Positions 11,538 to 63,927 of a stretch of DNA of 64,000 bases are shown piece by piece (positions within the stretch are counted from its first letter, which is position 1; every line of letters begins with the position of its first letter). The notes below the pieces were generated by a model. The model was not told the DNA's origin and made no database searches. It was given only the letters and a program-made list of their open reading frames with translations. This stretch comes from an uncultured Gammaproteobacteria bacterium (GTDB taxonomy: Bacteria > Pseudomonadota > Gammaproteobacteria > SZUA-140). The stretch spans positions 866 through 64,865 of the forward strand of contig CAMYIG010000001.1 in assembly GCA_947258425.1 (NCBI GenBank), read 5' to 3'. Position numbers and translations under genes: made by a program.

Positions 11538-11539
11538 AC

Positions 11540-12142: not shown

Positions 12143-12169
12143 TTAACCAACCCGGGGAGCTCTCAAACC

Positions 12170-13788: not shown

Positions 13789-13929
13789 TTTTAAATCTCA
13801 AACGCCAAAAAGAAAGTGAGGTGCCACTTATAAAAACCTAAAATAGCACTCATCATAAAAAACCATTATAAGCATAAATACTGTTATCCCGAAACTGACC
13901 TATCATCAAGCATTCAAAAACAAGCACAT

Positions 13930-20300: not shown

Positions 20301-21503
20301 GGCCTGTGGTGCACCGGTAAACACCACCGGTTTCAGACTCTCAGAACCACTCTTACCCTGCGTTGAAAGCTCTCTCAAAATATCTACGCCAGTAAAATAG
20401 TTATGATCCAGGTCATTCCATAACTGCTGCTGCACCACTTTCGCCTCATCGAGAAAATGGGCCTTGTCACCAATATCGATATCCAGCAGGCTAAATGAAG
20501 CGGCCTCACCGACAATGTTGTTGACCTGAGGGTCGAGTGGAAAACGATTAAACTGAGGGATATTCAGACAGAAATTTCGACTTTGACTCCACATCGCAAT
20601 CACATAAGCGTATGCCGTTAGCAAAACCACAATGGGGGTGACACCACTTTGATTGCAGTGCTGTTTAATACTGTTCCAGCTAGTTGCGCCCAGTTTAAGG
20701 CCTAGCCGGGTAAAGCGTCCCTCGTCAACTTCCTGAGGTGTTTTGGCAAGCGGCAGATCTGGTGCTGCAGACATGCGATCAATGCGTTGCTTCCAGTAAT
20801 CGGCATCTGCTTTAAATTTACTTGATTTTTTTAACGCGCGCTCAGCAAATACATAATCTCTAAATGTCAGATTAAGCGGGGGCAATGGCTCATCAGGACG
20901 ATGATAAAGCTGCGCCCATTCGGTGAAAATCACCGTCAAACTCCAGCCATCTACAATCAGCGCATCGAAACCGATATGCAGCCGTAACAGTCCATCTCTC
21001 AATTGTGCCGCAGTAATGGTAAACAGTGGCCACTGGTCTGAAGGTAGCACCTGATGTGAAATATTGTATCGCAGCTCCGCCAACTTCTTCTCGCGCGCAC
21101 CTTCATCGTGCTGCGTAAGGTCGACATAATCTATTTTATAGTCGGGTGTCTCCTCTAAAATCCGCTGATCACCATCGCGACTGATCACAACCCGCATCAT
21201 TTCATGCCGCACTATAAGCTTACAAAACGCCTCATTTAAACGCGCATAGTCAAGTTCATCTTCAATTTCATGATAAGCATAGCCCGCGACTTTACCCATC
21301 TCAAATGCGCCACTGCGTCCAATCCAGTACGCCTGCTGAAGTTCAGTCAACGGAAAAGGATCATAACGCTGGGCAGGGTTCGCCGTGATTTTATCAGATG
21401 CGATGTCAATCTTTTCAGCCGCCTGCTTCTGCGCAAGCTTCTTGATTAATAAAGCTCGCTTTTCAGGAGTAAGCCCTTCTAGCCGTTTTTTAAGGTCTGT
21501 CAT
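17322..21503 (-). CDS. NRPS module Cy-A-T-Ox (heterocyclisation, Cys-like adenylation, PCP, C-terminal FMN oxidase; thiazole-forming)
   Basis: Cy1 FPLTELQQAYWIGR; Cy2 RHEMMRVV..DGDQ; the Cy signature DALIVDGWS (DxxxxD) replaces HHxxxDG. A-domain cores YVIYTSGSTGTPKGV, GGPTETT, YRTGDL, GRTDFQIKIQGQRIECGEVE, NGKVDRK. Specificity residues ~D-M-Y-N-F-G-V-L-W-K resemble the Cys code DLYNLSLIWK. PCP LISMGANSL. The C-terminal ~285 aa carry YLYSSPGGLYATQVY, a McbC/SagB-like nitroreductase-fold oxidase signature, arranged as in BlmIII. The basic N-terminal helix KKRLEGLTPEKRALLIKKLAQK is a possible docking element. Confidence 0.9.
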   Translation of the reverse strand: MTDLKKRLEGLTPEKRALLIKKLAQKQAAEKIDIASDKITANPAQRYDPFPLTELQQAYWIGRSGAFEMGKVAGYAYHEIEDELDYARLNEAFCKLIVRHEMMRVVISRDGDQRILEETPDYKIDYVDLTQHDEGAREKKLAELRYNISHQVLPSDQWPLFTITAAQLRDGLLRLHIGFDALIVDGWSLTVIFTEWAQLYHRPDEPLPPLNLTFRDYVFAERALKKSSKFKADADYWKQRIDRMSAAPDLPLAKTPQEVDEGRFTRLGLKLGATSWNSIKQHCNQSGVTPIVVLLTAYAYVIAMWSQSRNFCLNIPQFNRFPLDPQVNNIVGEAASFSLLDIDIGDKAHFLDEAKVVQQQLWNDLDHNYFTGVDILRELSTQGKSGSESLKPVVFTGAPQAPDGTSAYTVNAARLIGNVTFAVNQTPQVWLDNHIYEYKGVLGVDWDYVSELFPDGLQEDMGHAYIQLLEWLAADQSAWQASWLEITTRLLPESQKIRRAQVNDNQRDVPQGLLQDLFIAHAETAGDSDAVITTQRTLNYRELLGLANRWGRRLRELNAMPNKLVAIVMDKGWEQAVAAYGVLQSGAAYAPMDALQPSERLCKLLANSGVELVLTQSWLVDKINWPEGLTLLCVDSDDIAEYDDGPLAHLQTPDDLAYVIYTSGSTGTPKGVMLNHRGVVNAIVETNRCFNVGSDDRVLAVTALHHDMSIYDMFGMLGAGGSIVMPDPEERRDPAHWVDMMQKFRPTIWNSVPAMMDMLLCYVESHPGTAPDSLRTAFLGGDWIPLGLPARLKKETGAQLVSVGGPTETTLWNIWYPVEQIDPTWKSIPYGKPIANTRYYILDEALAPCPDWVAGEMCVAGIGVAMGYWQDEQKTAEKFVKHPETGERIYRTGDLGRYLPDGNIQFVGRTDFQIKIQGQRIECGEVEAALQQHESVISAVVTVAQTGKQRLLAYLVKAPGYAIDENKLREHLASRLPDYMVPAMFITLDELPLTRNGKVDRKSLPEPQDSPSESALSANNSEIVTQLNAMICELLSMDNLSNEANLISMGANSLDMVKIGNQLEKMFGFRPRMDEIFRLQSVNAIADYCRSNSAQDNKEKTVEDEGELSGVKALIASYQQLRDPAEREAFKNSQPGIRKNDEGKEFLQLKKPVDDEAFRKKYANRFSHRRFSLECIPFDQFSDFLSCFYQIEVDGKPKYLYSSPGGLYATQVYLHVKPGRIEGIPAGTYYYHPIEHRLVTLTKDAQISRAIHVPYVNTPIYDEAAFSLFFVTDLGAVAPSYGKYSTYLAKLETGIIAHLIDESAREHDLAVCQIGGANFDKVRALFDVEERHYFVHSLLGGAIYRNGENNVAIKEDVNSRVIGLIERIKQLSKGEVSDQLSARSLVEQKGVVK

Positions 21504-21641
21504 ATGCTATTAATTTTTTTATTGAATACTTTTTTAGCTTAATACCATCATCATAATCATCAGTTAAATACAGGATTTAAACCGAATACAACGACAGCGA
21601 TTATCACAATCAACATGCAAAAGTGAGGATAATATTCTTTA

Positions 21642-24600
21642 TCATTCGTCTTCAAGCTCACCCAATAGCGCAAGCAACTCATCTTCGTTTACATTCTCCA
21701 GCATCATCTGTTCAATCTTGCTGGAAAAATCGACCAATCGAGGCGAAAGAAAGATCGCTTGAAGTGGAATATCAATCGCAAAGTCCTGTCGGATGCGTGT
21801 AATCAACTGCACCGCGATCAACGAATGCCCGCCAATCTCGAAGAAATTATCGTACAACCCCACCTGCTTGAGCCCCAGTAACGCCTGTAAAATAGTAGCG
21901 ACCTGAATCTCAACTTCGCTAGCAGGTGCGACATATTCTGCCTGAGTATCAATATTCCCTTGCTCCGGCACTGGGAGTTTTTTACGATTAATTTTTCCAT
22001 TCGGTAATAATGGCAATCCCGCTAGCACGACGTAATTTACGGGCACCATAAATTCAGGTAAATGTTGTCCCAGATAGTTGCGTAGCGCATTGATATTGAT
22101 GTCAGTGCCTGTGTCTGGCACCACATACGCAACAAGCTTTTTATTCCCGGGCTCATCTTCTCGCAGTAGCACAAGCGCGTCATTCACTTCGGTATTCTCT
22201 AACAGAAGCTTCTCGATCTCACCCAGCTCAATCCGATAGCCATGTAGCTTGACCTGATGGTCGATGCGCCCCATGAACTCCAGCCGCCCATCACGACCCA
22301 TGCAGACCAGGTCGCCCGTTCGATACATACGGTCATTTAAATCACCACTCACACTGTTTTTTACAAACTTTTCAGCAGTGAGCTCGGGGCGATTCAGATA
22401 ACCCCGTACCACGCCGTCACCGGCAATTACCAGTTCACCCGGCACACCCAGCGGCTGAAGTTGCATATTGTTATCCAGCACATAGGTCTGTGTATTCGCA
22501 ATCGGGGAGCCCAATGGAATATCTGCGTCTGCCTCATGTAAATGATACGTGGTTGACCAGATCGTCGTCTCAGTCGGCCCGTACATATTCGTCACTTGAC
22601 CTTTCACCAATGAACGCAGCTTTACTGCCAACTGACTCGAAAAGGCTTCACCGCCCACCATCATATGAGACAAGCATCCCAGTGCGTGATGCATCTGCTG
22701 GTCTGATGCCAGCATATTGGCCATCGTTGGCGTACATTGAAAATGCGTGACGTTGTGTCGCTCGATAAGTGCAGCGATGGAATAATCCTTATCCGCCCCA
22801 TCAGACTGCGGCGGGTTAGCCGCCTCCTTCACCTGGCTTAGATAATGGAGGTGGGCCAGTACTTTTTCGGTCTCGATGCCAAAATCGATCAGACAACCGA
22901 TCTCATCCACCCCTATTTCCTTGAGTTGATCTGCACGTTCAACGCATCGTTCAACATTCCCAAAGAGCCCGCTGTGGTTATAATAGCGATCAAACGCGAA
23001 GGCCAGCAGGCTATCTCTATCCTCATCAGAAATATTATTAAAAAACTCATCCATGGTCTGCTCTGTACCCTCGGATACCTGCTTCCACGCCGGGCTATGC
23101 CACGCGGCCGCTTTCACCAGAGAAACTGCACTTTCCAGATAGTCCATCATCGGCTGCTGTGCAACATCACGCACCTGCGCCTCATCATCGCCGATGAAGG
23201 TGTGTAGCATTAATGTGACTTGCCCATCACCTGCATGACCGGCCTCTTTCCAGGCGCTACGATAGAGCCGAATATTCTCTGCCACCTTTTCAATATCCTG
23301 TCCGAGCAGGTGCGTCAGCACATGTGCACCAATTGATCCAGCCTGTCGGAAGGTGTCAGGATTCACCGCAACCGTTACCCAAATTGGTAACTTTTCCTGA
23401 ATAGGTCTAGGGTAGGTGCGGACTTCAACATCGCCTTTCGGCCCCGCAAACGTGACAGCCTCACCTTTCCATAATTGCTGGATAGTCTCAACGGAATCAA
23501 ACATGATCTCTTTTGCGCGCGCATGATTCTCAGGCTTGATCACAAAATCATTCGGCTGCCAGCCGGGCGCAATCGAAAGCCCCGCACGGCCATTGGAAAG
23601 GTTATCCACCACCGACCACTCTTCTGCGATGCGAATAGGGCTATGCAGTGGCACCACACAACTGCCCGCACGAATACCGATGTTTTGCGTAGTGGCCGCC
23701 AGTGCGGCACCGATGACTGAGGGGTTAGGGTACAGTCCGCCAAAGGCACCGAAATGTCGCTCAGGTGTCCATAGCGCTTCGAAGCCATTTTTGTCGGCGT
23801 ATTTAGCGCTTTCGAGCAGTAACTTATACTTATCTGCCTCGCGAGATGCCTCGTCTTTTACAAAATTCCAGTAAAAAAGACTAAAGGCAATCGGCTGAGC
23901 GGGGTATCGTGTCGCCACTTCCCCAGCCTTCAGGTCATCACCGGCGTAGAGCACCAGTTTAAACCCTCGACAGAGACTCCAGAAAATCTCAAGCACGGAG
24001 ATATCAAACGATATACTGGTCACAGCCAACCACACACCCGGGGAATCATGCGCAATGCGCTCATCCATGCCTGCGAAGAAATTCACCACATTACGGTGTT
24101 CGACCATCACCCCTTTGGGACGCCCGGTCGAGCCCGAAGTATATATCACATAAGCCAGACTCGATGACGCGCACGGGATTTCAAGATTATTATCGCTCTC
24201 GACATCGATTCGACTTCGCTCAAGATCAACCTGCAACAACTTTTCACCGGGCAGATAATTTGCGTAATCAGACTGGGTAACTACCAACGCCAGCTCTGCG
24301 TCATCGGCCATATAAACCAAACGATCTTTGGGATAAGTGGGATCCAGTGGCACATAGGCCGCGCCTGTTTTCCACGTTGCCAATAGCGCGATCACCATAT
24401 CAAAGGAACGATCCAACATCACACCGACCAGATCATCTACACCCACGCCATGTTTTACCAGATAGTGCGCCAGCTGATTTGCGCGAGCATTCAACTCATG
24501 ATAACTGAGGCTGTCATTGTGAAATGCCAGCGCGGATGTATCCGGTGTAGACACTACTTGTTGTTCAAACAGCTGAAATACACATCGATTTTCAGGGTAT

Positions 24601-27600
24601 GCAGTGGCAGTACCCGTGGCTATTTTTAATATGGCCTGTTGCTCTTCTCTCGGTAAAATCGGCACACTCGCTACCGGCGTATTGAGATCTTCAACCATGA
24701 CCTCCAGCACTTTTAGATAGTGCGCCAGCATACTTTCCATACGCGCTTGCGAGAAAAGGTCGGTGCAATATTCAAGTACCGCCTCCAGTCCAGAGGGACG
24801 CTCCCACATATAAAGGGTCATGTCATATTTTGAAGTACCACTATGAGTGTCCAGCTGTATCGTCCGCATGCCGGGAAGATTCATCACCGATTCATGCTCA
24901 AGCGCATCAAAAATAAACATCACCTGAAAAACCGGTGCATAACGTAAATCACGCTCTGGATTGAGCGCCTCAACCAATTTATCGAATGGCAATCCCTGAT
25001 GCGCAAAATCTGCAATGGTCGTCTTACGCACGCGGGCGATCAACTCTCTCAGTGAAACATCGCCTGATAGATCACAACATAAAGGGAGTGAGTTCATAAA
25101 CAGTCCGAGCATCGCTTCGGTCTCGAGCGGCTCGCGGTTCGCGACCGCAGTACCGACCACAAAATTCTCCTGTGATGAGTAGCGGTGGAGCAGTAATTGA
25201 TAGGCCGCCAACAGCAGCATAAATAGACTGGAACGCTCCTGTTGCGCAATGATATTAAGTCGCTGATGTAGCGCAGACGGTATCTTCAGGGTCACAGAAC
25301 TGCCATTAAATTGCTGCACGGACGAGCGTGGGAAATCAGTTGGTAACTCCAGTACCGGCGGCATCTGCTTTAACCGAGGCAGCCAGTAATCAATCTCCGC
25401 CTGAAGACGATCATCGGCCATATAAGTACTTTGCCAGGCAGTATAGTCAGCGTAATCGGCTGAGAGCTGAGGTAATTGCGGTTCAACGCCACTCACCATC
25501 GCACCATATACCTGCTCGAGCTCGCTTGCCAGCAGACGCACTGACCAGCCGTCAAACACGATGTGATGGATCACAAACGTCATCACATATTTTGATGGTG
25601 CCAGTTTGATAATATTGCAGCGCCACAACGGTCCCTGTTCGATATCGAACAGAGTGTGCGCCTCATTTGTGATCAACTTATCTATTTCCGCCTGCGGATC
25701 TGACGCCTGACTCAAGTCATGCATGAATACCGGCAAGTCGACCTGACCCGCTATCACCTGTGTCGGCGCGCCCCCTTTCACTGAAAACGTGGTACGCATT
25801 GAAGCGTGGCGCTTAACGATTACCGCCATCGCTTGTTTAAAGAGCTCGGGATCAAAATCACCATCGATCTTAAATGCATAAGGGATGTTATAGAGTGCGC
25901 CCACCTGCTCCATTTGCTCAAAAAACCAGATGCGACTCTGCATAAATGAAAGCGGGATATCGCCAGCATGTTCTTTTTTGTGTAGCACTGGTTGTGTCAC
26001 GGCCACATCCGTTACTGCCGATGACGAGATATATTTCGCAAGTTCAGCAATGGTGGGGGAGTTAAAGAGTGCAGTAATAGAAAGCTGCACACCGAACTCA
26101 CGCCGCAACCGGGCGACCATCTGCGCGGCCAGCAGGGAGTGGCCACCGGCATGAAAAAAATTAGCGTTCACACCTACTCTCTCTACACCCAAAAGGGCCT
26201 GCCATATCGCTGCGATCCTGGTTTCTGTATCGCCTGTCGGTGCAACATAATCACGATCTTCGAACAGGTCCGCGTACCGAGGATGGGGTAGCGCCTTTTT
26301 ATCCACCTTGCCATTCGCCGTTAAAGGAATCTCCGCAACAAAGACAAAATGCTGTGGAACCATATGGACAGGCAGACCATTGGCGACATAATCACGTAGT
26401 GCATCGACCTGTAGGCTGTCAGACTTTTTAACCACATACGCCACCAGGCGCTGGTCACCCACACCCAATTCAATGACATTCAATGCAACCTGCTTAACCT
26501 CGGGGTACGCAATGAGAAGCGATTCGATCTCACCAAGTTCTATTCTAAAGCCGCGCAATTGCACCTGGTCGTCAATTCGCCCTAGGTATTCCAGTTCATT
26601 ATTGGAGAGGCGGCGCGCTAAATCGCCAGTACGATACAGTCGGATGACAGTGCCGTTTTCTAACGTGTGGTTAATAAAACGTTCTGCGGTCAAGTCAGGC
26701 CGATTCAAATAGCCCTTCGATAGACCATCGCCGGCAACATACAGCTCCCCTTTCTGCCCATCGATAACAGGCTTCATCGCGTCATCAAAAAGATAGAGTT
26801 TCAGGTCTGGAATGGCCCGGCCAATCAGACTCCCCTTCGGGTGATCCACATCATCACGAGAAATGGGACGATACGTCACGTGCACGGTTGTTTCGGTGAT
26901 ACCGTACATATTAATCAATTGCGGGGCGTTGTCTCCGTGACGGGAAATCCACGGTTTTAAAGCGGCCAGGTTGAGCGCTTCACCGCCGAAGATCACATAA
27001 CGTAACGCCAGTGTATCTGCTGTGTGTCGCTCTTCATCCACCAGCTGTAGCTGCTGGAATGCTGAGGGGGTTTGATTCAGGACGGTGACCCCTTGCGATA
27101 TCAGCAGGGTATAAAACAATTCCGGGGTGCGTGCTGTTTCCGCTGACACAATCACCAGGCTGCCACCGTAGCTCAGCGCGCCCCAAATCTCCCACACAGA
27201 AAAATCAAAGGCATATGAGTGAAACAGGGTCCAGACATCATCCACACCAAAATCAAACCAGTGGTTAGTGGAATCAAAAAGCCGGGATACATTTTTATGA
27301 GTTACCTGCACTCCTTTGGGTGCCCCGGTAGAGCCCGAGGTATAGATGACATAGGCAAGGTGCTCGTCAGTCACCGCTACAGCAGGATTTTCTACTGTCG
27401 ATGAACCCTTCTCCATCGCATCAATCAATAAAATTTTAGCCGAACAGGCGGGTAAATTTTCGACCAGCGTCTGCTGCGTTACCAGTACAGCAGGTTTGGC
27501 ATCATTCAGGGTGTAGGCAATACGGGAAGCGGGGTAATTCGGGTCAACCGGCACATAGGCAGCGCCTGCCTTTAAAATACCCAAAATACCGATCACTGTA

Positions 27601-27815
27601 TCAAATGAGCGCGAAACACATAACCCAACCAGTGAACCCGGCGTGACCTCCTGTGTGATAAGCGCATTGGCGAGCTGGTTTGCCTGAGCATTAAGCTCAC
27701 CATAGGTAAGCTGGCGATCCTCCCAGATCAAGGCCGTCTTATCAGGATTACGTTGCGCATTGAGTTCAAAGCGCTGGTAACAGGTCGAAAGAGTAGTCAC
27801 ACAATCACCATTCAC
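21642..27815 (-). CDS. NRPS A(Thr)-T-C-A(Gly)[MOx]-T: loading module plus an elongation module whose A domain is interrupted by a luciferase-like monooxygenase
   Basis: A1 cores YVIYTSGSTGAPKGV, FDFS, NMYGITETT, YRTGDL, GRIDDQVQLRGFRIELGEIE, NGKVDKK; its Stachelhaus residues D-F-W-N-I-G-M-V-H-K match the Thr code exactly. T1 FFHAGGHSL. C-domain HHIVFDGWS. A2 cores YVIYTSGSTGRPKGV and FDIS, then a ~375-aa insert starting IAFSLFYWNF (bacterial luciferase-like monooxygenase), then NMYGPTETT, YRTGDL, GRIDHQVKLHGYRIELGEIE, NGKINRK. The A2 code D-I-L-Q-M-G-M-I-W-K is near the Gly code. T2 FFEIGGHSL. The acidic C-terminal tail EDELLALLGELEDE is a possible docking partner. Confidence 0.9.
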   Translation of the reverse strand: MNGDCVTTLSTCYQRFELNAQRNPDKTALIWEDRQLTYGELNAQANQLANALITQEVTPGSLVGLCVSRSFDTVIGILGILKAGAAYVPVDPNYPASRIAYTLNDAKPAVLVTQQTLVENLPACSAKILLIDAMEKGSSTVENPAVAVTDEHLAYVIYTSGSTGAPKGVQVTHKNVSRLFDSTNHWFDFGVDDVWTLFHSYAFDFSVWEIWGALSYGGSLVIVSAETARTPELFYTLLISQGVTVLNQTPSAFQQLQLVDEERHTADTLALRYVIFGGEALNLAALKPWISRHGDNAPQLINMYGITETTVHVTYRPISRDDVDHPKGSLIGRAIPDLKLYLFDDAMKPVIDGQKGELYVAGDGLSKGYLNRPDLTAERFINHTLENGTVIRLYRTGDLARRLSNNELEYLGRIDDQVQLRGFRIELGEIESLLIAYPEVKQVALNVIELGVGDQRLVAYVVKKSDSLQVDALRDYVANGLPVHMVPQHFVFVAEIPLTANGKVDKKALPHPRYADLFEDRDYVAPTGDTETRIAAIWQALLGVERVGVNANFFHAGGHSLLAAQMVARLRREFGVQLSITALFNSPTIAELAKYISSSAVTDVAVTQPVLHKKEHAGDIPLSFMQSRIWFFEQMEQVGALYNIPYAFKIDGDFDPELFKQAMAVIVKRHASMRTTFSVKGGAPTQVIAGQVDLPVFMHDLSQASDPQAEIDKLITNEAHTLFDIEQGPLWRCNIIKLAPSKYVMTFVIHHIVFDGWSVRLLASELEQVYGAMVSGVEPQLPQLSADYADYTAWQSTYMADDRLQAEIDYWLPRLKQMPPVLELPTDFPRSSVQQFNGSSVTLKIPSALHQRLNIIAQQERSSLFMLLLAAYQLLLHRYSSQENFVVGTAVANREPLETEAMLGLFMNSLPLCCDLSGDVSLRELIARVRKTTIADFAHQGLPFDKLVEALNPERDLRYAPVFQVMFIFDALEHESVMNLPGMRTIQLDTHSGTSKYDMTLYMWERPSGLEAVLEYCTDLFSQARMESMLAHYLKVLEVMVEDLNTPVASVPILPREEQQAILKIATGTATAYPENRCVFQLFEQQVVSTPDTSALAFHNDSLSYHELNARANQLAHYLVKHGVGVDDLVGVMLDRSFDMVIALLATWKTGAAYVPLDPTYPKDRLVYMADDAELALVVTQSDYANYLPGEKLLQVDLERSRIDVESDNNLEIPCASSSLAYVIYTSGSTGRPKGVMVEHRNVVNFFAGMDERIAHDSPGVWLAVTSISFDISVLEIFWSLCRGFKLVLYAGDDLKAGEVATRYPAQPIAFSLFYWNFVKDEASREADKYKLLLESAKYADKNGFEALWTPERHFGAFGGLYPNPSVIGAALAATTQNIGIRAGSCVVPLHSPIRIAEEWSVVDNLSNGRAGLSIAPGWQPNDFVIKPENHARAKEIMFDSVETIQQLWKGEAVTFAGPKGDVEVRTYPRPIQEKLPIWVTVAVNPDTFRQAGSIGAHVLTHLLGQDIEKVAENIRLYRSAWKEAGHAGDGQVTLMLHTFIGDDEAQVRDVAQQPMMDYLESAVSLVKAAAWHSPAWKQVSEGTEQTMDEFFNNISDEDRDSLLAFAFDRYYNHSGLFGNVERCVERADQLKEIGVDEIGCLIDFGIETEKVLAHLHYLSQVKEAANPPQSDGADKDYSIAALIERHNVTHFQCTPTMANMLASDQQMHHALGCLSHMMVGGEAFSSQLAVKLRSLVKGQVTNMYGPTETTIWSTTYHLHEADADIPLGSPIANTQTYVLDNNMQLQPLGVPGELVIAGDGVVRGYLNRPELTAEKFVKNSVSGDLNDRMYRTGDLVCMGRDGRLEFMGRIDHQVKLHGYRIELGEIEKLLLENTEVNDALVLLREDEPGNKKLVAYVVPDTGTDININALRNYLGQHLPEFMVPVNYVVLAGLPLLPNGKINRKKLPVPEQGNIDTQAEYVAPASEVEIQVATILQALLGLKQVGLYDNFFEIGGHSLIAVQLITRIRQDFAIDIPLQAIFLSPRLVDFSSKIEQMMLENVNEDELLALLGELEDE

Positions 27816-53983: not shown

Positions 53984-54351
53984 GTAATAGCCCTTCCTTA
54001 GTTCAAATTTGGTTAACCCGTTATTATAAATGAAATATCGTCATAATATACGAGCACTTTAACTACTCGCTCATTAAATCAGTCTAGCGTCGCACCTAAT
54101 TTAGCCAATTGACCCCTTCAATAATTATCGATAATAATATGTTTTATCGGGTACCAATATGCTGCAGCACTTTCAATCTATCGGCACAAGCTGGGGATCA
54201 AGCAAAAAATATAAATCAACACGCCAATTTCCATTCTTTGTTCATGGTCATTAGGTTTTTTAGTATACTTAATGTCGGATTATTTTACAGGCCATTAAAG
54301 ATAATTATCACAATAAATTTTATTTTGATAGATATCAACTAGTTATATTTA

Positions 54352-54367
54352 TGGCACGGTTAGTGCT
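54352..54367 (+). promoter_or_regulatory. Sigma-54 (RpoN) -24/-12 promoter of the PEP-CTERM gene
   Basis: aTGGCACGgttaGTGCTt versus consensus yTGGCACGrnnnTTGCw. GG at 54353-54 and GC at 54365-66 have the canonical 10-nt spacing. It lies 40 nt upstream of ATG 54407, with a GAGGA RBS at ~54394. An IHF-like TATCAACTAGTTA (WATCAANNNNTTR) sits at 54333-45. Confidence 0.6.
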
Positions 54368-54406
54368 TAGAGTAAAGTAGATGTAAAATAATCGAGGATT
54401 TATCAA

Positions 54407-54970
54407 ATGAACAAAGTTTTTGCAGCAGCCCTGATACTACTATTAATAGTTGCAGGAAATGCACACGCAACATTATCAAACCCATACAGCTATACTCCAG
54501 AGGATCTGCAGACATTTTCACTGCAGCAGGATGCCCCTGGCGGTAGCGCACAAGCTTTTTATGGCATTTTCCCAGATGGCACCTTCACCACAATATGGGA
54601 TCGTTCAAATACAGGTGGAACGGCATATATTGGTGCGAGCGGCACCAAAGACCTGAGCGCTTTTGACGGCATAAGCTTGAATATTACCAATAGCTCATTT
54701 GCACCGATCTCAGCAGCACTCTATGTAGTCGAAGACGCCATGATCTATATAGGTAGCATCATTGAGCTGGATGACAATGAGACAGGCATCATGAAACTCG
54801 CTTTTGGTGGTCCAAGCCAGTCAACGACGATGGATGACCAGTACGGCTTCTTTACCGCACAGACTACAGGCTATATGACCCATGCAAAAGTGCCTGAGCC
54901 AGCAACCATCGCGATGATGGGACTTGGCCTGATCGGCCTGGGATTCATGGCAAGACGTAGAAACAGCTAA
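54407..54970 (+). CDS. PEP-CTERM domain protein (exosortase substrate)
   Basis: N-terminal signal peptide MNKVFAAALILLLIVAGNAHA. C-terminal VPEPATIAMMGLGLIGLGFMARRRNS, i.e. PEP motif plus TM helix plus Arg cluster at the extreme C-terminus. Confidence 0.85.
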   Translation: MNKVFAAALILLLIVAGNAHATLSNPYSYTPEDLQTFSLQQDAPGGSAQAFYGIFPDGTFTTIWDRSNTGGTAYIGASGTKDLSAFDGISLNITNSSFAPISAALYVVEDAMIYIGSIIELDDNETGIMKLAFGGPSQSTTMDDQYGFFTAQTTGYMTHAKVPEPATIAMMGLGLIGLGFMARRRNS

Positions 54971-54997
54971 CAACAAAAAGGTGCCTAAGCACCATTG

Positions 54998-55033
54998 GCC
55001 CTCAGATAGCGAACCTATCTGAGGGCTTTTTTT
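54998..55033. terminator. Bidirectional rho-independent terminator
   Basis: gccctcagata-gcgaacc-tatctgagggc is an 11-bp perfect stem followed by T7. It is flanked by A-rich sequence on the other side. It sits between the convergent PEP-CTERM gene and prsT. Confidence 0.75.
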
Positions 55034-55042
55034 ATTCTCCAT

Positions 55043-57322
55043 TCACAAGCTATCACGTAACGCTTTAGCTAGCGCGTAGCTTGAGAACGAACCCGGTTTT
55101 GCAACTAGCAACTCATCCAGCAGATCTCTTGCTTTGTCAGCATCACCTGTTTTCGCATAACCTGCTGCCAGATGATACTGTATATCAGGCATCTTTGGTG
55201 CCCGCTCATGCGCATCCTCAAGTAAAGACAGACCTCGCTTCAATCGCCCTTCTTGAACCAGGATCCAGCCAAGCGTATCCAGAACCGAAGCATTCTCTTT
55301 ATTTAGCGCATAAGCACGCTCAGCAAATGACAATGCACGCTTATCACCAGCTTGTGAAAAAAACCAGGCAAGATCATTCAGGGCGATCAAATTTTCCGGA
55401 TCATTTTCGAGCAGTATTAAATAATGCCTGATTGCAGAGTCACTATCATTCAACTGGTTATAGCCCCCCACCAGCACTAACCGAGCTCTGGCGTCATCTG
55501 TAAACTCATCAAGCCACTGCTCAAGAAATGCCTGTGCCTGTGCAAGCTGATTAGCCTGTGCATAGGTCCGATGCACTTTGATCGCGATCGTACTCCGCCG
55601 TTCTTTTTGTAGTCCCATTTTATACTCAGCAAGGGCATCACTGTATCTCTTCTCCGACATCATCAAGTCGCCTGCCAGCTCAAATCCAACCGCGACATCA
55701 GGCGCCGCGTTCTTTACACCTTCAGCGACTTTTAATGCACTATCCACCTTGCCTTCACTAAGTTCAAGACGTACCAGATTGATCGCAGCAGGAAAATAAT
55801 CACCTTTAAGCTCCAATGCACGTTTCAGATATTGACGCGCATCATTATTATTACCCTTATTTAAATAAACTGTACCAAGCAAATGGTTAAAAACCGGTTG
55901 ATCTGGTGAACTGGAAACCATTTTCTTAGCAACTACAAGCGCTTGATCAAGGCGTTTCTCGCGCAGATAAAGCATCACCAGCAATACGCCTGCACGATCT
56001 GTGCGTTTCTCTAGCCCCTTCGCGTTTTCTAGCTCATTAATTGCAGCTTCAACGTGACCCTGCTTTAAATAGGACACCGCCAGCTCAGTTCTTGCAAAAT
56101 GATTATCCGGATCGTTATCAATCGCGGATCTGAGATAACGAACACCATTTTCAACATCGCCACTATAATTAGAAGCCGCCCCTATCAGTGCAAGTAACTG
56201 AGCATCAGTAGACGCATTCTTAAGTGCAGGGGAAAGCAGGTCAACCACCCCCTCGTGGTGTTGCTGCTGAAGCCGCAACGATGCCAGCATCTTACGTGCA
56301 GTAGTATTGTCAGGTTGTAAAATGACATAACGACTCAATAACTGGTCAGCTTGTTCCAAATTACCCATCGCATAATTGACCGCACCTAACATCAACATGG
56401 TCGGTTCATGCTCAGGCGCGAGTTGCTGAACAATTATCAGATATTTGCGTGCCGTATCGAGGTCACCACTTTCATATGCTATTTTTGCACGCATAAAATT
56501 GGGTAGTGGATGTTGAGGCAGAAGCGCTATAAGCTCATCGACTACCGCGAGTGCCTCTTCGTTCTTTTGCTGTGCATTCAATACGCCTACCAGGCCTAAG
56601 CGTGCCTGCACTGAATACTGACTAGACACTTGCTTAGGTTCATTTAACAAAACAAATTTATAGCTATTCTCAGCCACAGAAAAATTCGCGTTGATAGTGG
56701 CTACTTTTCCTTTTAGAAGCAAGGCCTCCGCATTTTTATCATCGATAGCCAATAAATTATCAATATATTGCGATGCCTGACCAATCTTATCCTCTAATAA
56801 ACTTAACCTCGCCAAACCAATATTTGCAAAAGCTGATTGACTGTTAATCTTTAATGCGGCGCTAAAATCAGCTCGTGCCTCATTAAATTTCTGAGAACCC
56901 AGTAGCGCTTCACCCCTTAGTGCGAGTAAATCAGACTTTGACTTTTTCGACAGGTCCTGATCGATGCTAATTTCATCCAATAATTGAGTGTATTTTTTCT
57001 GTATTAATAATGACCGCGAAAGTAATATTACAACATCGTCATTACCTGACGTCTGCATACCCAGCACTCGTCGAAGTTCTCGTTCACCACTTTCACCGTC
57101 ACCGGTATCAACATAGATAGCACCTAACAGATATCGCGCACGCACACTTGACTCATCTTGCTGGAGAACATTCTTTAGCTCAATCACTGCTGAACGATAG
57201 TTTTTCTCCTGAAAAAATACTTCGGCTCGCTGCATATGCTCAGCCGGATCCAGACTTGCTTTCTCACAGGCCGCGACCAAAAAAATCAAAAAGACAAGAC
57301 ACCAGAAACGTTTTTTCTTCAT
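55043..57322 (-). CDS. prsT: PEP-CTERM-system TPR-repeat lipoprotein
   Basis: Lipobox LVAAC; ~20 TPR units throughout. 759 aa. Immediately downstream of xrtA. Confidence 0.8.
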   Translation of the reverse strand: MKKKRFWCLVFLIFLVAACEKASLDPAEHMQRAEVFFQEKNYRSAVIELKNVLQQDESSVRARYLLGAIYVDTGDGESGERELRRVLGMQTSGNDDVVILLSRSLLIQKKYTQLLDEISIDQDLSKKSKSDLLALRGEALLGSQKFNEARADFSAALKINSQSAFANIGLARLSLLEDKIGQASQYIDNLLAIDDKNAEALLLKGKVATINANFSVAENSYKFVLLNEPKQVSSQYSVQARLGLVGVLNAQQKNEEALAVVDELIALLPQHPLPNFMRAKIAYESGDLDTARKYLIIVQQLAPEHEPTMLMLGAVNYAMGNLEQADQLLSRYVILQPDNTTARKMLASLRLQQQHHEGVVDLLSPALKNASTDAQLLALIGAASNYSGDVENGVRYLRSAIDNDPDNHFARTELAVSYLKQGHVEAAINELENAKGLEKRTDRAGVLLVMLYLREKRLDQALVVAKKMVSSSPDQPVFNHLLGTVYLNKGNNNDARQYLKRALELKGDYFPAAINLVRLELSEGKVDSALKVAEGVKNAAPDVAVGFELAGDLMMSEKRYSDALAEYKMGLQKERRSTIAIKVHRTYAQANQLAQAQAFLEQWLDEFTDDARARLVLVGGYNQLNDSDSAIRHYLILLENDPENLIALNDLAWFFSQAGDKRALSFAERAYALNKENASVLDTLGWILVQEGRLKRGLSLLEDAHERAPKMPDIQYHLAAGYAKTGDADKARDLLDELLVAKPGSFSSYALAKALRDSL

Positions 57323-57339: not shown

Positions 57340-58929
57340 CTAGTTATCACGTCGCGTATATTCTGCATTTAACTGTCCATTCAGCTCATCAAGCCGCACA
57401 CTTATATGCGGCATCATCTGCCTATAAAACAGCGCCAACTCCCTCCGAGCAGAATCAGCACCCTGATCGCTATCTATAGATATTGAAACCACCATTGCAC
57501 TTCTATTTGAAATGATCGCGCCCCAGATATCCAGTAGCTTGGCGGTGATTTGACTGGTCGTAGATATCCCCGCGACATTGTACCAATACCAGATTACTTT
57601 TTCTTTCGATGAGCGAAACTCAACTTCAACCACCTGTTGACTTTCAAAATCGCTGACTAAAATATGTCGCACACCACCTGGTACAACAACCTCATTGGCG
57701 CCCGTAAAAAAACCATTTTCTGAATTGATTAACTCCGCCCCCTGTCGTTGATGCGCATAGTATGCAACATACAACATGACTGACTCATCGCCCTTGTGAT
57801 ATTTTGCGGCGAGTACTTTGTCCGCGCCATGAAATAAGGGGCGCCAGCCATCATCAATATACTCAGGACCAATCCATTTTTCAGCCCCTTTAGGAAACAC
57901 TAAATCGACAGAAGAAAATGTATTAGGCAACGACAGGGCTTGTGACTCTACATTCTTTATCACTACAAAAAAAATAATTAACCCCGTTAGCACGCCGCCA
58001 TATAAATATTGCTTACGCAGGGGTAATACTTCATCTCTAACATTTCTCGGCTTAAATTTAGTTTCACTAATAATGCCTGTCTTTTGTTTTTCTTTAGGCA
58101 TCAGTATCCATAATAAAGGATACATCAACCCTGCGTATAACGCCCACCCAAGGCCTTCATGATCCTCGACCATCCAGTGTTGCATATCGGTCAGGTGTCC
58201 AATCCAGATGATGATCAACACCCGCAACCAGTTTAATGCAATCGACCAAAAAACGATGATCGAAAACACCATCAAACGTTTACGATTACCCTCGAAAAAA
58301 ACATATACGTAAAGAGAACCTAATGCCATAGATGCGAGTAAGAACCTAAGCCCGCCACATACCTCTTCGATTAAAAATCGTCCTTCAGGTATTGTCAGAT
58401 AGTACCCCTCCATTAGCGTTGGAATACCCTGAAACTGCAGTACTTTATATGCAACCACTGCCGTCATATCCTGCAGTATAGACGCGACTGGGTCCCATAT
58501 AGGTGTTGCGAAAATAAGATAGCTCAGCGGAAAGAAAAGCACGCGGCCAGTTTGATTTCCAAAAACAGCCCATATCAGCGCAGGAAACATCATGATAAAA
58601 CTTACATATTCTACCGTCATCACGCCAACAAGCCTTGAAACCAACCAGAGTAGCGATAACGCTATTAACACACTCAAGCCAAGCTTCGATGGTACAGGCA
58701 CGATATCACCAAGCAGCATCCTACGCTGCCAAATCAAATACGCGCTTACTATGACCACAAGAAAACCGTAGCTGTATTGGCTGGACTCCCACCAAAAAGT
58801 AACGACCGAAGCAGCAGTATCGGAAAATAATGTCGCTAATACTAATATTAAAACAACACTGGAAACTAGCGGGACAGTCCATAGTGAGTGGCCAGACTCA
58901 ACTCCCCCTCTAGCCCCCGTTTTATCCAT
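57340..58929 (-). CDS. xrtA: Exosortase A with a fused C-terminal EpsI-like periplasmic domain
   Basis: Eight-TM N-terminal domain with a YSYG motif and the putative catalytic-Cys region EEVCGGLRFLLAS; conserved Arg/His positions follow. After a further TM helix comes a ~200-aa soluble domain (EpsI-like). 529 aa. Confidence 0.85.
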   Translation of the reverse strand: MDKTGARGGVESGHSLWTVPLVSSVVLILVLATLFSDTAASVVTFWWESSQYSYGFLVVIVSAYLIWQRRMLLGDIVPVPSKLGLSVLIALSLLWLVSRLVGVMTVEYVSFIMMFPALIWAVFGNQTGRVLFFPLSYLIFATPIWDPVASILQDMTAVVAYKVLQFQGIPTLMEGYYLTIPEGRFLIEEVCGGLRFLLASMALGSLYVYVFFEGNRKRLMVFSIIVFWSIALNWLRVLIIIWIGHLTDMQHWMVEDHEGLGWALYAGLMYPLLWILMPKEKQKTGIISETKFKPRNVRDEVLPLRKQYLYGGVLTGLIIFFVVIKNVESQALSLPNTFSSVDLVFPKGAEKWIGPEYIDDGWRPLFHGADKVLAAKYHKGDESVMLYVAYYAHQRQGAELINSENGFFTGANEVVVPGGVRHILVSDFESQQVVEVEFRSSKEKVIWYWYNVAGISTTSQITAKLLDIWGAIISNRSAMVVSISIDSDQGADSARRELALFYRQMMPHISVRLDELNGQLNAEYTRRDN

Positions 58930-58938
58930 AAAAACTGC

Positions 58939-60312
58939 TCACTTTAATCCGTGTCTTTCTAATAAGGTGTACAGCGTCGGACGACTCACACCAAGCAACT
59001 CCGCCATCTGAGAGATATTATTACCACACACCCCCATCGCTCTACGAAGTGCCTGTAGTTCTGCTGCATGTTTAATCTCACGTAAGTTAAGCTGGATATC
59101 AGCATCAGCCGTTATCGATTCTAAATCAAGATCTTCGGCAGTAATGTGACTTTCATCTGCCATGATCACCGCCCGCTTAACACGATTTTCTACTTCTCTA
59201 ACATTACCCGGCCATAGGTGAGCTTCTATCTCAACCAGCGCATCTCTGGAAAACCCTTTTATATTCTTATTGTTCTCTCGATTAAAACGCTCCAGAAAGG
59301 TTCTAGCGAGCAATAGCGCATCATCTGATCGCTCACAAAGCGGTGGGATTTTGATTGTCATTTCGCTAATCCGATAATATAAATCTTCTCTAAACCGTCC
59401 ATCACTCACCTGGCCTTCCAGATTCTGGTGTGTTGCACAGACAACTCGCACATCGACAGGAATTTCATCTCGTCCCCCAATGCGCTCAATCACTCTTTCT
59501 TGTAAAAAACGTAATAATTTTGCTTGCAGCGGCTGACCAAGATCACCTATCTCATCAAGAAAAAGCGTACCGCCGTGTGCACACTCAATCTTGCCCAGCG
59601 TCTGCTTAGCCGCCCCGGTAAAAGCACCTTTCTCATAACCAAAAAGCTCACTTTCTAAAAGATTCTCTGGAATCGCAGCACAATTTATTGCAACAAAACG
59701 CTTGCTGGCGCGATCACTCATATCGTGTAATGCACGCGCAAGCAACTCCTTTCCTGTGCCGCTATCACCAAGTAGTAATGTAGTGATATCTGTCGGCGCA
59801 ACCTTTTCGATCGTCTTACAGATTTTCTGCATAACATCACTTGCGAAAACGATCCCGCCAAATGTAGTTTCAAAACCCTGCTTTAATAACATCTTATTTT
59901 GCAGTTCAAGCGCCCTAAGGTAAGCTGCGCGATCAACGACAAACTTCAATGTATCCGGTTTCACCGGTTTCTGATAAAAATCATACGCACCGAGACCAAT
60001 GGCTCTCATTGCATTTTTATCATCATCATTACCTGTCACAACAATTACTTTTGCACTCGCATCATGCTCAATGATCTCAGTCAGCGCAGCAAGCCCTTCA
60101 CTTGCATTTTCTGGGTCAGGCGGTAAACCCAAATCAAGCGTGATCACATCTGGACAATGTTCAGTTAACTGTTTGATGCCTTCCGCACGATCAGCGGCAA
60201 CGATCACTTCATAGCCATCAAAACACCAACGCATCTGACTCTGCAAACCAGGGTCGTCTTCAATCACTAACACCTTTTTCAAAGCCTGCTTCGATACTGC
60301 CACAGTAGTCAC
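58939..60312 (-). CDS. prsR: Sigma-54-dependent response regulator (PEP-CTERM-box type)
   Basis: REC domain (DD..D..K); AAA+ sigma-54 activator domain with GDSGTGKELLARALH, the GAFTGA motif (EKGAFTGAAKQ) and ESELFGYEKGAFTG; C-terminal HTH. Confidence 0.9.
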   Translation of the reverse strand: MTTVAVSKQALKKVLVIEDDPGLQSQMRWCFDGYEVIVAADRAEGIKQLTEHCPDVITLDLGLPPDPENASEGLAALTEIIEHDASAKVIVVTGNDDDKNAMRAIGLGAYDFYQKPVKPDTLKFVVDRAAYLRALELQNKMLLKQGFETTFGGIVFASDVMQKICKTIEKVAPTDITTLLLGDSGTGKELLARALHDMSDRASKRFVAINCAAIPENLLESELFGYEKGAFTGAAKQTLGKIECAHGGTLFLDEIGDLGQPLQAKLLRFLQERVIERIGGRDEIPVDVRVVCATHQNLEGQVSDGRFREDLYYRISEMTIKIPPLCERSDDALLLARTFLERFNRENNKNIKGFSRDALVEIEAHLWPGNVREVENRVKRAVIMADESHITAEDLDLESITADADIQLNLREIKHAAELQALRRAMGVCGNNISQMAELLGVSRPTLYTLLERHGLK

Positions 60313-60315
60313 CTT

Positions 60316-62400
60316 TTATTTAGTTTGCTCATTATAACGAGGTATCTTGATAAAAAACCTCGTCCCACGCTGAAGTTGACTATCGACGGCTATGGTTCCA
60401 TCCAGACCACTAATAAACTCTCGGGCCTCATAAACACCTATTCCCATTCCAGCATTTCCCTTAGTTGTGTCAAACGGACGAAAGAGGCGTTCACGTATAA
60501 ACACTTCATCCATACCACTGCCACTATCTTCTATCGTAATATTAGCCCAATCGTTACTTGACGCTAATCGAATTTCTACACTACCGTTTTCGTCTGTGGC
60601 TTCTTGCGCATTTTGTACCAGATGTTCAATCACAGACAGCATTCTGTCATATTCAGCTAAAATTAAAATCTCATCGTCGCATCCAACCACCCTCGGAACA
60701 GGCTGAGTGACTGACCTGTTCTCAACCGCACTTTTTAATAATGAACCCAACCTCACTACAGCTTTACCACTTGAAAAGGTACTTTCGCCCTTTAACTGCG
60801 ATAGCATTCGATTCATTTTTCCTACCGAATTATTAACAGTCCCAAGTGCGTCATCAATAAATTCTGGCTTATTCTTGAACTTTTTTGCGTTCTCGACCAC
60901 CAATGACAGCTGACCAACCACATTTTTAAGGTCATGCACAACATAAGCGGACAAACGATTAAAGGCCTCAAACTGACGTGCGTCTAATAACGCCTGATTT
61001 GCTTCGAGTAATGCTAGGTAACTGGCAAGTTCGCGCCCCGCGATCCTTAACAGATCGATATCTTCCCAGTTGAAATGGTCTCCACCACGTGATTTAGCCA
61101 ACACAACAAAACCGAAAATCTCTGTTTTTTTCATTAGTGGAACAATAAGCCAGACATCCTGTAGTTCACTTAGCCATGCGGGTAACTTAAGACCGCGATA
61201 TAAACTTGTGTCAATCTTATACTCATTCAAGTTCACTACCCATTGCCATTTTTCCATAAACATCACCAGTGAGCTATTTCTATCCTCTATTGCATGCTCA
61301 GGGAGCCCCATATCCCAGCCACTTACGGGCTTATACCCTTTATCATGTTCACTATATAACCATAGTCCCCCACCCGAACTTTCCACGATATCTGCAATCG
61401 CTTTAATTGCGCGCACACGCAACTGTTCGTCTGTCCCCCCCATAGAAAGCGCTCGAATAAATGTTATCCACTGTTCACGGTAATCGTATTTATATGCAAA
61501 GAAATTCTTCGCCAAGTAGACCTTTAGGTATGCACGTATTTGCCCAGAAAACATTAATACAAGCAATAAAATCAGAGCGCCCATAACAAAAACGACCTGA
61601 ATAACCCCGCCCCAGTCACCCCCAAAAAACTGTATGTAATAGCCAGCTACCGCCATTATCAGCAAGTATATACCGGCACTTATTATCGACACTGTATGAA
61701 AAACAACTCGATGTGATACCGCCTCATTGATCGCCCAATTACGATTTCGCTGCATTGAGATTGCAATCAAAGGCATAGCAAGTGCGCTTACAACTCCTCG
61801 CGCATTCCAGAAATCAGGATTAATAGACCCAAAGAGCAATGCCTCTGAATAGAGAAACAGGTCGTATACAAACATACTGCCGACCCCCAAACATAGAAAC
61901 TTATATACCCATCGTTCATCTGCCCAAATATTTCGAGCCAGCTGTTCTACCAGGACCAGCCCCGCTACCGCTAAAATGACATGTCCAAATAAAGCGGAAT
62001 ACCCCCCCATAAAACTTAAAGGCATAGCACCTACGACCGCGAGATATAAATACCTAAAGAAAAGAGCAAGCGCACAAACACCACATATCAGGGCAAGTAC
62101 AATTAGTTTCAGATTGAAACCCTTACCTCGCTCATCAGAGTTCCGTACCAACTGCACCAACCAGAAGAAGAGCGTTAGCCATGCCACATTTTTGGCAATC
62201 TCGAGCAAAGGGAAAACTGAGGATATAGCTGCGAATGCAGCCTGATATGCGCCAGCCGCCGACCACAAAGTAGTGACGCCTAGTGTTATCGCAAGAATAA
62301 TGCCGCCTGAGCGTTGACGCCAGCCGAACAACGAAATAATTGTTAACAGCAGGAATAACGCCGCCGAAATAGAGTAACTTGCTGCGCCTACATTCAACAT
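60316..62400 (-). CDS. prsK: PEP-CTERM-system sensor histidine kinase
   Basis: ~8-10 N-terminal TM helices; GAF-like middle domain; HisKA H-box SAYVVHDLKNVV; HATPase_c (GSGMDEVFIRERLFRPFDTTKG..GMGIGVYEAREF). 3-nt gap to prsR. Confidence 0.85.
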   Translation of the reverse strand: MLNVGAASYSISAALFLLLTIISLFGWRQRSGGIILAITLGVTTLWSAAGAYQAAFAAISSVFPLLEIAKNVAWLTLFFWLVQLVRNSDERGKGFNLKLIVLALICGVCALALFFRYLYLAVVGAMPLSFMGGYSALFGHVILAVAGLVLVEQLARNIWADERWVYKFLCLGVGSMFVYDLFLYSEALLFGSINPDFWNARGVVSALAMPLIAISMQRNRNWAINEAVSHRVVFHTVSIISAGIYLLIMAVAGYYIQFFGGDWGGVIQVVFVMGALILLLVLMFSGQIRAYLKVYLAKNFFAYKYDYREQWITFIRALSMGGTDEQLRVRAIKAIADIVESSGGGLWLYSEHDKGYKPVSGWDMGLPEHAIEDRNSSLVMFMEKWQWVVNLNEYKIDTSLYRGLKLPAWLSELQDVWLIVPLMKKTEIFGFVVLAKSRGGDHFNWEDIDLLRIAGRELASYLALLEANQALLDARQFEAFNRLSAYVVHDLKNVVGQLSLVVENAKKFKNKPEFIDDALGTVNNSVGKMNRMLSQLKGESTFSSGKAVVRLGSLLKSAVENRSVTQPVPRVVGCDDEILILAEYDRMLSVIEHLVQNAQEATDENGSVEIRLASSNDWANITIEDSGSGMDEVFIRERLFRPFDTTKGNAGMGIGVYEAREFISGLDGTIAVDSQLQRGTRFFIKIPRYNEQTK

Positions 62401-62535: not shown

Positions 62536-63927
62536 CTACCTGCCACCTTTACCCCACAAAACTGCACCTGCCGTTTGAAACAGAATGACAAGATCGAGAA
62601 AGACGCTGTAATTTTTCACATAATAAAGATCAAACTGTAATTTTTCACGTGAATCTTTTTCAGAGTCGCCATAGGGATAACATATCTGCGCCCACCCCGT
62701 AATACCCGGTTTCAAACGATGGCGTTCTGAGTAATATGGAATATTTTCAGATAACTTCTCAACAAACTCTGGTCGCTCTGGGCGCGGCCCGACAAAACTC
62801 ATATCGCCCTTCAATACATTTACTATCTGCGGAAGCTCATCGATGCGAAGCTTTCTTATCAGGGTACCCACTCGCGTCACTCGACTATCATTCTTTGTTG
62901 CCCACTGAGCCTTACCATCGCCTTCTGCATCTACTCGCATGCTGCGAAATTTTAACACCTGAAAAAGTTTCCAGTTTTCACCAACCCGTACCTGCTTATA
63001 GAGAACAGGCCCACGGTCTTCCAGATAAATAGCAATCACTGTAATAACAATAGCAGGGGACGAGATCAGCAATAAAAGCAGACTGGCCCCAACATCAAAA
63101 ATTCGCTTTATATAGACCCTTAAAATGCCATATTTGAAGCCATCAGAGAAAATAAGCCAACTCGGATTCAAGATGTCCAACATAATCTTACCCGTTTGCC
63201 GCTCAAAAAAACTGAGGAGATCCAGCACCTCCACGCCACTCATACGACAATCGACAATCTCGTGCATCGGGAAATTTTTCCGCCGGTCATCAATCGCCAC
63301 AATGATTTCATCAACCTGATATTGCTGTGCAAGCTCCAACAAGGTCATATCATGCGGCACTATCTTCTCATCCACAACGCTACGTTCCCCAGGAAACCTA
63401 ACGTAGCCTACGATCGTAAACCCACGCTGATCTGTTTTACGACGAAGTAAACTGTTGATTGCGGTCGCACGCTTACCTGTGCCCAGCACCAGTATCCGCT
63501 TATTCATTGCCTCCTTATCAACCAGCTTATAAAACACCAGCCGAACGATAACCACGCCAACTAAAGCGACCAGAAATGAAATGGCAAACTCACCTCGCCC
63601 TAAAATTAACGTGGGAAAAATATAGAAAAAGATACTAATTAATACAAAGCCGAAGAGCAGACCACCCATCACTCTCATCAACATACCGCCAAAACCATCT
63701 CTGAGATTACGCTGATAAAGCCCCATGACGGTCATGGAGCTCAGCATCACAAAGGTATATTGTGCTGCCTTAAGAAAAAAGACCCCGCCACCAACACTAA
63801 CGTGTTCTTCATCGATAAAACGTATCGTGGCACCAATATAGACTGATGCCAGCAGAATACAGGCCTCAAGCAACCCCAACATCAAAAATGAAACAGGAAT
63901 ATAGTGCCGAAAAATTCTTACCATCAT
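62536..63927 (-). CDS. Initiating polyprenyl-phosphate sugar phosphotransferase (WbaP/EpsB-type 'sugar transferase, PEP-CTERM system associated')
   Basis: Four N-terminal TM helices, a central Rossmann-like domain, and a C-terminal Bac_transf domain (KRIFDVGASLLLLLISSPAIVITVIAIYLEDRGPVLYKQVRVGENWKLFQVLKFRSM..DELPQ). Confidence 0.85.
   Translation of the reverse strand: MMVRIFRHYIPVSFLMLGLLEACILLASVYIGATIRFIDEEHVSVGGGVFFLKAAQYTFVMLSSMTVMGLYQRNLRDGFGGMLMRVMGGLLFGFVLISIFFYIFPTLILGRGEFAISFLVALVGVVIVRLVFYKLVDKEAMNKRILVLGTGKRATAINSLLRRKTDQRGFTIVGYVRFPGERSVVDEKIVPHDMTLLELAQQYQVDEIIVAIDDRRKNFPMHEIVDCRMSGVEVLDLLSFFERQTGKIMLDILNPSWLIFSDGFKYGILRVYIKRIFDVGASLLLLLISSPAIVITVIAIYLEDRGPVLYKQVRVGENWKLFQVLKFRSMRVDAEGDGKAQWATKNDSRVTRVGTLIRKLRIDELPQIVNVLKGDMSFVGPRPERPEFVEKLSENIPYYSERHRLKPGITGWAQICYPYGDSEKDSREKLQFDLYYVKNYSVFLDLVILFQTAGAVLWGKGGR

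Follow-up and report, generated by a model that had tools for sequence, protein, structure and literature searches.

What controls the PEP-CTERM gene that lies in an exosortase (XrtA) exopolysaccharide locus, and which sequence upstream of it would be recognized by PrsR, the response regulator encoded nearby? The question arises from a 64,000-nucleotide stretch of gammaproteobacterial DNA (the whole stretch that was analyzed, hereafter the window), whose host is known only from metagenome-assembled genomes (MAGs) and belongs to a poorly sampled lineage. The gene is preceded by a 423-bp intergenic region, for which a preliminary description had proposed a PrsR-regulated promoter composed of a sigma-54 element, an IHF-like site and two upstream palindromes, the latter as the candidate enhancer. 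Judged from sequence and from comparison with other genomes, the locus very probably holds a sigma-54 promoter of the canonical PEP-CTERM regulon type, under the control of PrsK and PrsR. Of the earlier proposal, the sigma-54 element, the IHF-like site and the link to PrsR are retained, but the palindromes lose their role. The predicted enhancer is instead an exact PEP-CTERM box, TGTCGGATTATTTTACA, which lies inside the interval described earlier yet was overlooked there. The features discussed below are collected in Table 1.

Table 1. Predicted regulatory elements and genes around the PEP-CTERM promoter (positions are those of the window; bit scores are followed by the model's cut-off where one applies)
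Feature	Position	Strand	Details
PEP-CTERM box, Haft motif 1, TGTCGGATTATTTTACA (predicted PrsR enhancer)	54273-54289	+	0 mismatches to TGTCGG-N5-TTTACA
Spacer, predicted DNA loop	54290-54351	+	62 nt, A+T-rich (19% G+C); separates the box from the -24 element
IHF-like core, TATCAACTAGTTA	54333-54345	+	0 mismatches to WATCAANNNNTTR; ends 6 nt before TGGCACG
Predicted sigma-54 -24/-12 promoter, TGGCACGgttaGTGCT	54352-54367	+	TGGCACG-N4-GTGCT, 1 mismatch to TGGCACG-N4-TTGCW
Predicted transcription start	54377-54379	+	Placed from C54366 = -12 by standard sigma-54 geometry
Inverted copy of box positions 6-17, TGTAAAATAATC	54382-54393	+	Perfect, 12 nt; falls within the predicted 5' UTR and ends 1 nt 5' of the Shine-Dalgarno sequence
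Shine-Dalgarno sequence, GAGGA	54394-54398	+	8 nt 5' of the ATG; read from the sequence
PEP-CTERM gene, 187 aa, single-gene operon	54407-54970	+	Predicted secreted; signal peptide, VPEP...RRRNS tail
Intrinsic terminator	54997-55035	+	13-bp stem and T-run; closes the single-gene operon
prsT, TPR lipoprotein	55043-57322	-	TIGR02917, 595.2 bits (312.2); convergent with the PEP-CTERM gene
Exosortase XrtA fused to EpsI domain	57340-58929	-	TIGR03109, 233.9 bits (208); TIGR02914, 99 bits
prsR, sigma-54 enhancer-binding response regulator	58939-60312	-	TIGR02915, 683.6 bits (502.6)
prsK, sensor histidine kinase	60316-62400	-	TIGR02916, 763.7 bits (300)
XrtA-system priming glycosyltransferase	62536-63927	-	Above curated cut-off
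XrtA export, chain-length, tyrosine-kinase, outer-membrane and glycosyltransferase genes	53983 down to ~34900	-	Divergent; above cut-offs

The regulated gene itself is readily classified. Its product ends in VPEPATIAMMGLGLIGLGFMARRRNS and scores 27 bits against TIGR02595 (cut-off 16), and its match to the floc_PepA family (NCBIfam NF033554) reaches 53.6 bits against a cut-off of 80 and covers only positions 139-261 of the 261-position profile. On sequence grounds, the protein is PepA-like in size, context and predicted regulation and is not a member of NF033554. Genomic neighborhood analysis bears out the proposed link to an adjacent PrsK/PrsR pair, as both proteins score well above their family cut-offs, and the GAFTGA motif previously ascribed to PrsR is present at residue 229.

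Several further features of the neighborhood were recorded. Between the convergent PEP-CTERM gene and prsT, the segment 54970-55035 holds a pair of intrinsic terminators placed back to back, with one on each strand. PrsT is unusually short, at 759 residues compared with about 920-930 in almost all of 67 other homologues, the nearest of which is 37% identical; because the short form is identical in a sister MAG, it is not an assembly artefact. A search of genome contigs with PrsT returned no match, and the PEP-CTERM protein falls into only one near-identical cluster. Elsewhere in the window, a non-ribosomal peptide synthetase (NRPS) cluster (10887-27815) with three genes of 1131, 1393 and 2057 residues is flanked by an XrtA-associated ATPase gene (8334-9332) on one side and by the XrtA exopolysaccharide locus on the other, and includes nitroreductase and luciferase-like monooxygenase domains as well as a phosphopantetheinyl transferase.

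The arrangement of proteobacterial PEP-CTERM promoters has been described before. These genes are mostly single-gene operons behind large intergenic regions (Haft 2006, PMC1569441), preceded by motif 1, a 17-nt element ending in TTTACA, and, after a spacer of 62.8 ± 10.6 nt, by motif 2, a 17-nt sigma-54 element located 71 ± 38.5 nt (minimum 23) from the start codon. It was the agreement between their phylogenetic profile and that of the DNA motif that led to the discovery of PrsR, PrsK and PrsT (PMC1569441). The earlier expectation that the locus may expose the PEP-CTERM box is thus moot, the box having been in print since 2006 (PMC1569441).

The window carries this box in exact form. TGTCGGATTATTTTACA (54273-54289) is 17 nt long, ends in TTTACA (54284-54289) and departs from motif 1 at none of the 12 specified positions; the window holds no second exact match, with ∼0.008 expected in the 128 kb of both strands. 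Relative to the predicted start, the box is centered at about -97 and spans about -105 to -89. Read as TGT-N11-ACA, it differs by one nucleotide in spacing from the TGT-N10-ACA by which a NifA-type upstream activating sequence (UAS) is recognized.

The sigma-54 element requires the box for its support. aTGGCACGgttaGTGCTt was found at 54351-54368, as in the preliminary description, and its GG (54353-54) and GC (54365-66) are offset by 12 nt, confirming the canonical -24/-12 spacing claimed there. The element at 54352-54367 is the only sequence in the 64-kb window with at most one mismatch to the consensus, and 0.89 such matches are expected by chance per window (at least one in 61 of 100 shuffles), so that the match alone is not significant. 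With up to two mismatches the window contains 7 matches, compared with 11.6 in shuffles. The other two-mismatch sigma-54 and box sites were considered and rejected, being at or below chance frequency and inside open reading frames (for example 19347-19362, in an NRPS gene). What makes the sigma-54 match significant is its combination with an exact box 62 nt upstream, a composite that remains unique in the window even when three to four mismatches are allowed. The claim of a sigma-54 promoter ahead of the PEP-CTERM gene is therefore supported as a composite. On the minus strand, toward the divergent export operon, no sigma-54 promoter was detected, with no GG-N10-GC candidate in the intergenic region. 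The 64-kb window contains neither rpoN nor IHF genes, and their presence in the genome is assumed.

From the predicted start, the 5' UTR would be only ∼29 nt long and unstructured, which replaces the 300-bp leader of the preliminary description. The sigma-54 element lies about 38-39 nt from the ATG (54407), a distance within the range given by Haft. The Shine-Dalgarno sequence recurs as GAGG at the same place when the promoters of homologous PEP-CTERM genes are aligned.

Motif 1 was re-derived from 240 public loci in two samples that did not use the window; the published logo is missing from the text of the paper. For the first sample, species-representative genomes were scanned for TTTACA-N45-75-TGGCACG-N4-TTGC, which yielded 120 loci. 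TGTCGG, with at most one mismatch, lies exactly 5 nt upstream of TTTACA in 42 of these 120 (∼0.6 expected), and a crude test found an open reading frame with a PEP-CTERM tail downstream in 23 of the 42. The resulting consensus is TGTCGG-A/x-A-W-W-Y-TTTACA. For the second sample, metagenomes were scanned for TGTCGG-N5-TTTACA-N48-78-TGGCACG with the -12 element left unspecified, again giving 120 loci, and GC appears at the exact -12 position in 105 of them (∼7.5 expected). The single consensus deviation of the window promoter, a G instead of T at the first position of the -12 element, can be placed in this sample: G is found at that position in 16 of the 105 metagenome loci, and GTGCT is the fourth commonest -12 pentamer (7 of the 120 box-selected promoters). 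This recurrence identifies the deviation as a normal variant. The window locus carries one box; 13 of 41 other loci carry a second, which in every case lies upstream.

The distance between box and promoter is similarly constrained. At 62 nt, the window spacer belongs to the commonest class in each of the two samples. Of the 41 genome loci with a box, 40 have spacers of 52-54, 61-66 or 73-75 nt (61-66 nt in 26 of 41), whereas the chance matches without a box have evenly spread spacers. In the metagenome sample (n = 120), 19 spacers are 50-55 nt long, 77 are 61-66 nt, 19 are 72-76 nt and 5 fall elsewhere. As a general observation on PrsR-type promoters, box-to-TGGCACG distances thus form classes of ∼53, 63-64 and 74 nt with almost nothing between. 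Adjacent classes differ by about one turn of the helix, which fits a face-of-the-helix requirement. The text of PMC1569441 mentions neither IHF nor phasing.

Within the spacer, the IHF-like core spans about -45 to -33. Taken alone, a perfect core in the intergenic region has P ∼ 0.064, and the case for the site comes from its recurrence in position. A perfect core is found in the spacers of 8 of 41 box-positive genome loci compared with 1 of 66 box-negative ones, and in 15 of 105 metagenome spacers compared with 0 of 89 control segments; with at most one mismatch, the metagenome figures are 60 of 105 and 6 of 89. The sites occupy fixed positions: in the majority (32 sites), the core is in minus orientation and ends 18-19 nt before TGGCACG, and in a minority (13 sites), to which the window belongs, it is in plus orientation and ends 6-7 nt before TGGCACG. 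In a profile anchored on TGGCACG, the corresponding columns at -31/-30 and from -24 to -19 are conserved.

Homologous PEP-CTERM genes provide a further view of the same region. A full HMMER search defines a family of 185-210 residues with 29-36% identity to the window protein. Ahead of all five homologues for which enough upstream DNA exists, a box and a sigma-54 site, each with ≤2 mismatches, stand 62-65 nt apart; a sixth, truncated upstream, keeps the sigma-54 site. The invariant columns of the family promoters are the box, the element A-CAA--AG-TA located 6-8 nt before TGGCA, and TGGCA-N7-TGC, with A-CAA--AG-TA invariant across six aligned promoters. The IHF-like site that had been noted just upstream of the promoter therefore gains support both from positional recurrence and from conservation in five homologous PEP-CTERM genes. 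In one homologous locus (L245, 1002-3571), a related PEP-CTERM gene again lies beside polysaccharide export and chain-length genes. This neighborhood suggests that the small PEP-CTERM family has a conserved tie to the start of the XrtA export operon.

These results bear on whether the sigma-54 match could be fortuitous and the gene transcribed from a sigma-70 promoter instead, such as TTGACC-18-AATAAT (54109-54138), with a leader of ∼260 nt. Such a promoter would draw on a 10-of-12 match on the + strand, on the chance expectation of 0.89 for the sigma-54 match alone, and on the 12-bp long-range helix into which the long transcript would fold. However, sigma-70-like matches occur at background frequency (4 found, 3.2 expected), and the composite of box, spacer, IHF-like site and sigma-54 element is beyond chance and conserved at five homologous genes. 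A weak sigma-70 promoter might operate alongside the sigma-54 one but would not take its place, and sole control from such a promoter is very unlikely.

The palindromes proposed as the PrsR enhancer are present. TTATCGATAA lies at 54125-54134 with a further TTATCG at 54144-54149, confirming these coordinates, and TTGATAGATATCAA at 54325-54338 is an imperfect palindrome with 6-nt arms and a 2-nt center. Enhancer-binding proteins often bind dyad-symmetric sites, and both palindromes are intergenic and upstream of the promoter, which would speak for TTATCGATAA and TTGATA-GA-TATCAA as PrsR binding sites. Their arm lengths are nevertheless at chance level: in a 423-bp spacer of 32% G+C, ATTATCGATAAT and TTGATA-GA-TATCAA (arms of 6) have P = 0.23 and 0.21, respectively. 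Neither palindrome recurs beyond control level in 142 box-type promoter regions. In the promoters of homologous genes, the TTGATA arm is unconserved, whereas TATCAA is conserved within the IHF-like element; the second palindrome is thus the TATCAA of the putative IHF core with an accidental partner. Only 14-27 nt separate it from the -24 element, a distance too short for an enhancer, and the first overlaps the sigma-70-like TTGACC-18-AATAAT. With an exact PEP-CTERM box already present at the canonical distance, a role of the palindromes as PrsR sites is most improbable, and they would be a false lead for EMSA or footprinting.

A related question is whether the activator acting at the box is the adjacent PrsR. 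In Aquincola, pepA is RpoN1-dependent, and primer extension places its start behind TGGCAC/CTGCTT (PMC9850573); for Zoogloea pepA, a requirement for both RpoN and PrsK-PrsR was shown (Gao et al. 2018, as relayed in PMC9012009). The assignment of PrsR to the box rests on phylogenetic co-occurrence (PMC1569441) and on the Zoogloea genetics as relayed there, and no published PrsR footprint was found in the literature searched, which leaves room for a sigma-54-dependent promoter served by another activator. This alternative is nonetheless highly improbable: the box exactly matches the motif whose phylogenetic profile fits PrsR, PrsK and PrsT (PMC1569441), prsR lies at a distance of 4.5 kb within this locus, and no other sigma-54 activator was seen in the 64-kb window. 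PrsR thus remains the favored activator, with RpoN dependence expected by analogy with the pepA promoters.

The region has one feature that sets it apart. The sigma-54 promoter is flanked by the two arms of a perfect 12-nt inverted repeat: the upstream arm, GATTATTTTACA (54278-54289), is the right part of the box, and the downstream arm, at about +5 to +16, lacks the TGTCGG half. When the intergenic region is shuffled, 1.4% of the shuffles contain a perfect inverted repeat of at least 12 nt (P ∼ 0.014), and a transcript begun upstream would fold with a 12-bp helix (z = -2.78). No comparable match was found in 140 other box-type promoters, in which the longest is 9 nt. A downstream half-box as a general feature of the regulon was accordingly rejected, being absent from the 140 promoters and from the five family promoters alike. 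The repeat may be chance, a half-site or an insulator against read-through. Under the last of these, read-through RNA containing both arms would form the 12-bp helix beside the ribosome-binding site, and sigma-54-initiated mRNA, lacking the 5' arm, would stay open. A functional role, either as a second, downstream PrsR contact (looping or autorepression) or as an RNA-level insulator, is considered unlikely.

Comparison with the closest relative is of limited use, as the sister MAG, the only one, is 99.6% identical and thus too similar for footprinting. Over the 423 bp, it differs at two places only: a 1-nt insertion (54373-54374) that follows the -12 element and precedes the predicted start, and a C-to-A change (54405) 2 nt 5' of the ATG. 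Neither touches the box, the IHF core or the -24/-12 element. Searches for a known RNA gave only sub-threshold Rfam matches, to psRNA6 and, on the terminator, to NsiR1; these were not reproduced with a shorter stretch, and a known RNA was rejected as an alternative. The match to psRNA6, a predicted Nitrosomonas sRNA, covers 54279-54332 with 17.6 bits (gathering score 60) and starts inside the box. The match may reflect an Rfam family that overlaps a Nitrosomonas PEP-CTERM upstream region, or it may be noise.

Set beside known systems, the promoter resembles the region described by Haft (PMC1569441) in its motifs, its ∼63-nt spacer, its closeness to the ATG, the non-coding stretch of more than 200 nt ahead of a PEP-CTERM operon of one gene, and the presence of PrsK, PrsR and PrsT, with no essential difference. 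In local detail, the window -12 element begins with G instead of T, and an additional inverted half-box lies downstream of the promoter. The pepA loci of Aquincola tertiaricarbonis RN12 and Zoogloea resiniphila MMB likewise combine a small PEP-CTERM gene with an adjacent prsT and a terminator between the two, and share the TGGCAC and xTGCT elements with the window; pepA lies upstream of prsT in the same direction, whereas the window gene is convergent with prsT.

A second comparison is with IHF-assisted sigma-54 promoters such as Klebsiella nifH, with its NifA UAS TGT-N10-ACA, and Pu of Pseudomonas putida. The window promoter resembles them in an activator site placed ∼100 bp upstream of the start, an IHF-like site lying between that site and the -24/-12 element, a GAFTGA activator and a TGT...ACA outline of the box. 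Unlike the NifA UAS, the window box is TGT-N11-ACA, with only the outer triplets symmetric, and the IHF-like core of the window promoter sits unusually near the -24 element, with 6 nt between its end and TGGCACG.

By analogy with these systems, activation would proceed as follows. PrsR, presumably phosphorylated by PrsK, would bind TGTCGGATTATTTTACA, and IHF would bend the 62-nt spacer at 54333-54345, so that the AAA+ ring and GAFTGA loop of PrsR meet the closed complex of RNA polymerase-sigma-54 at 54352-54367. ATP hydrolysis by PrsR would then open the promoter, with transcription starting near 54378. The monocistronic mRNA would extend from its ∼29-nt leader to the terminator at 54997-55035 and encode the secreted PEP-CTERM protein, which XrtA, encoded three genes away, would presumably process.

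The architecture has been known since 2006, and the locus is an ordinary instance of it in a poorly sampled lineage. Its worth lies in annotation and correction: for this locus, it fixes where the predicted PrsR site, IHF-like site and promoter lie and where transcription probably starts, and it removes the palindromes from consideration. The inverted half-box, if functional, would be a lineage-specific addition to PEP-CTERM promoter architecture. For the family at large, the spacer classes, together with the fixed positions of the IHF-like sites, could sharpen genome-wide prediction of the PrsR regulon.
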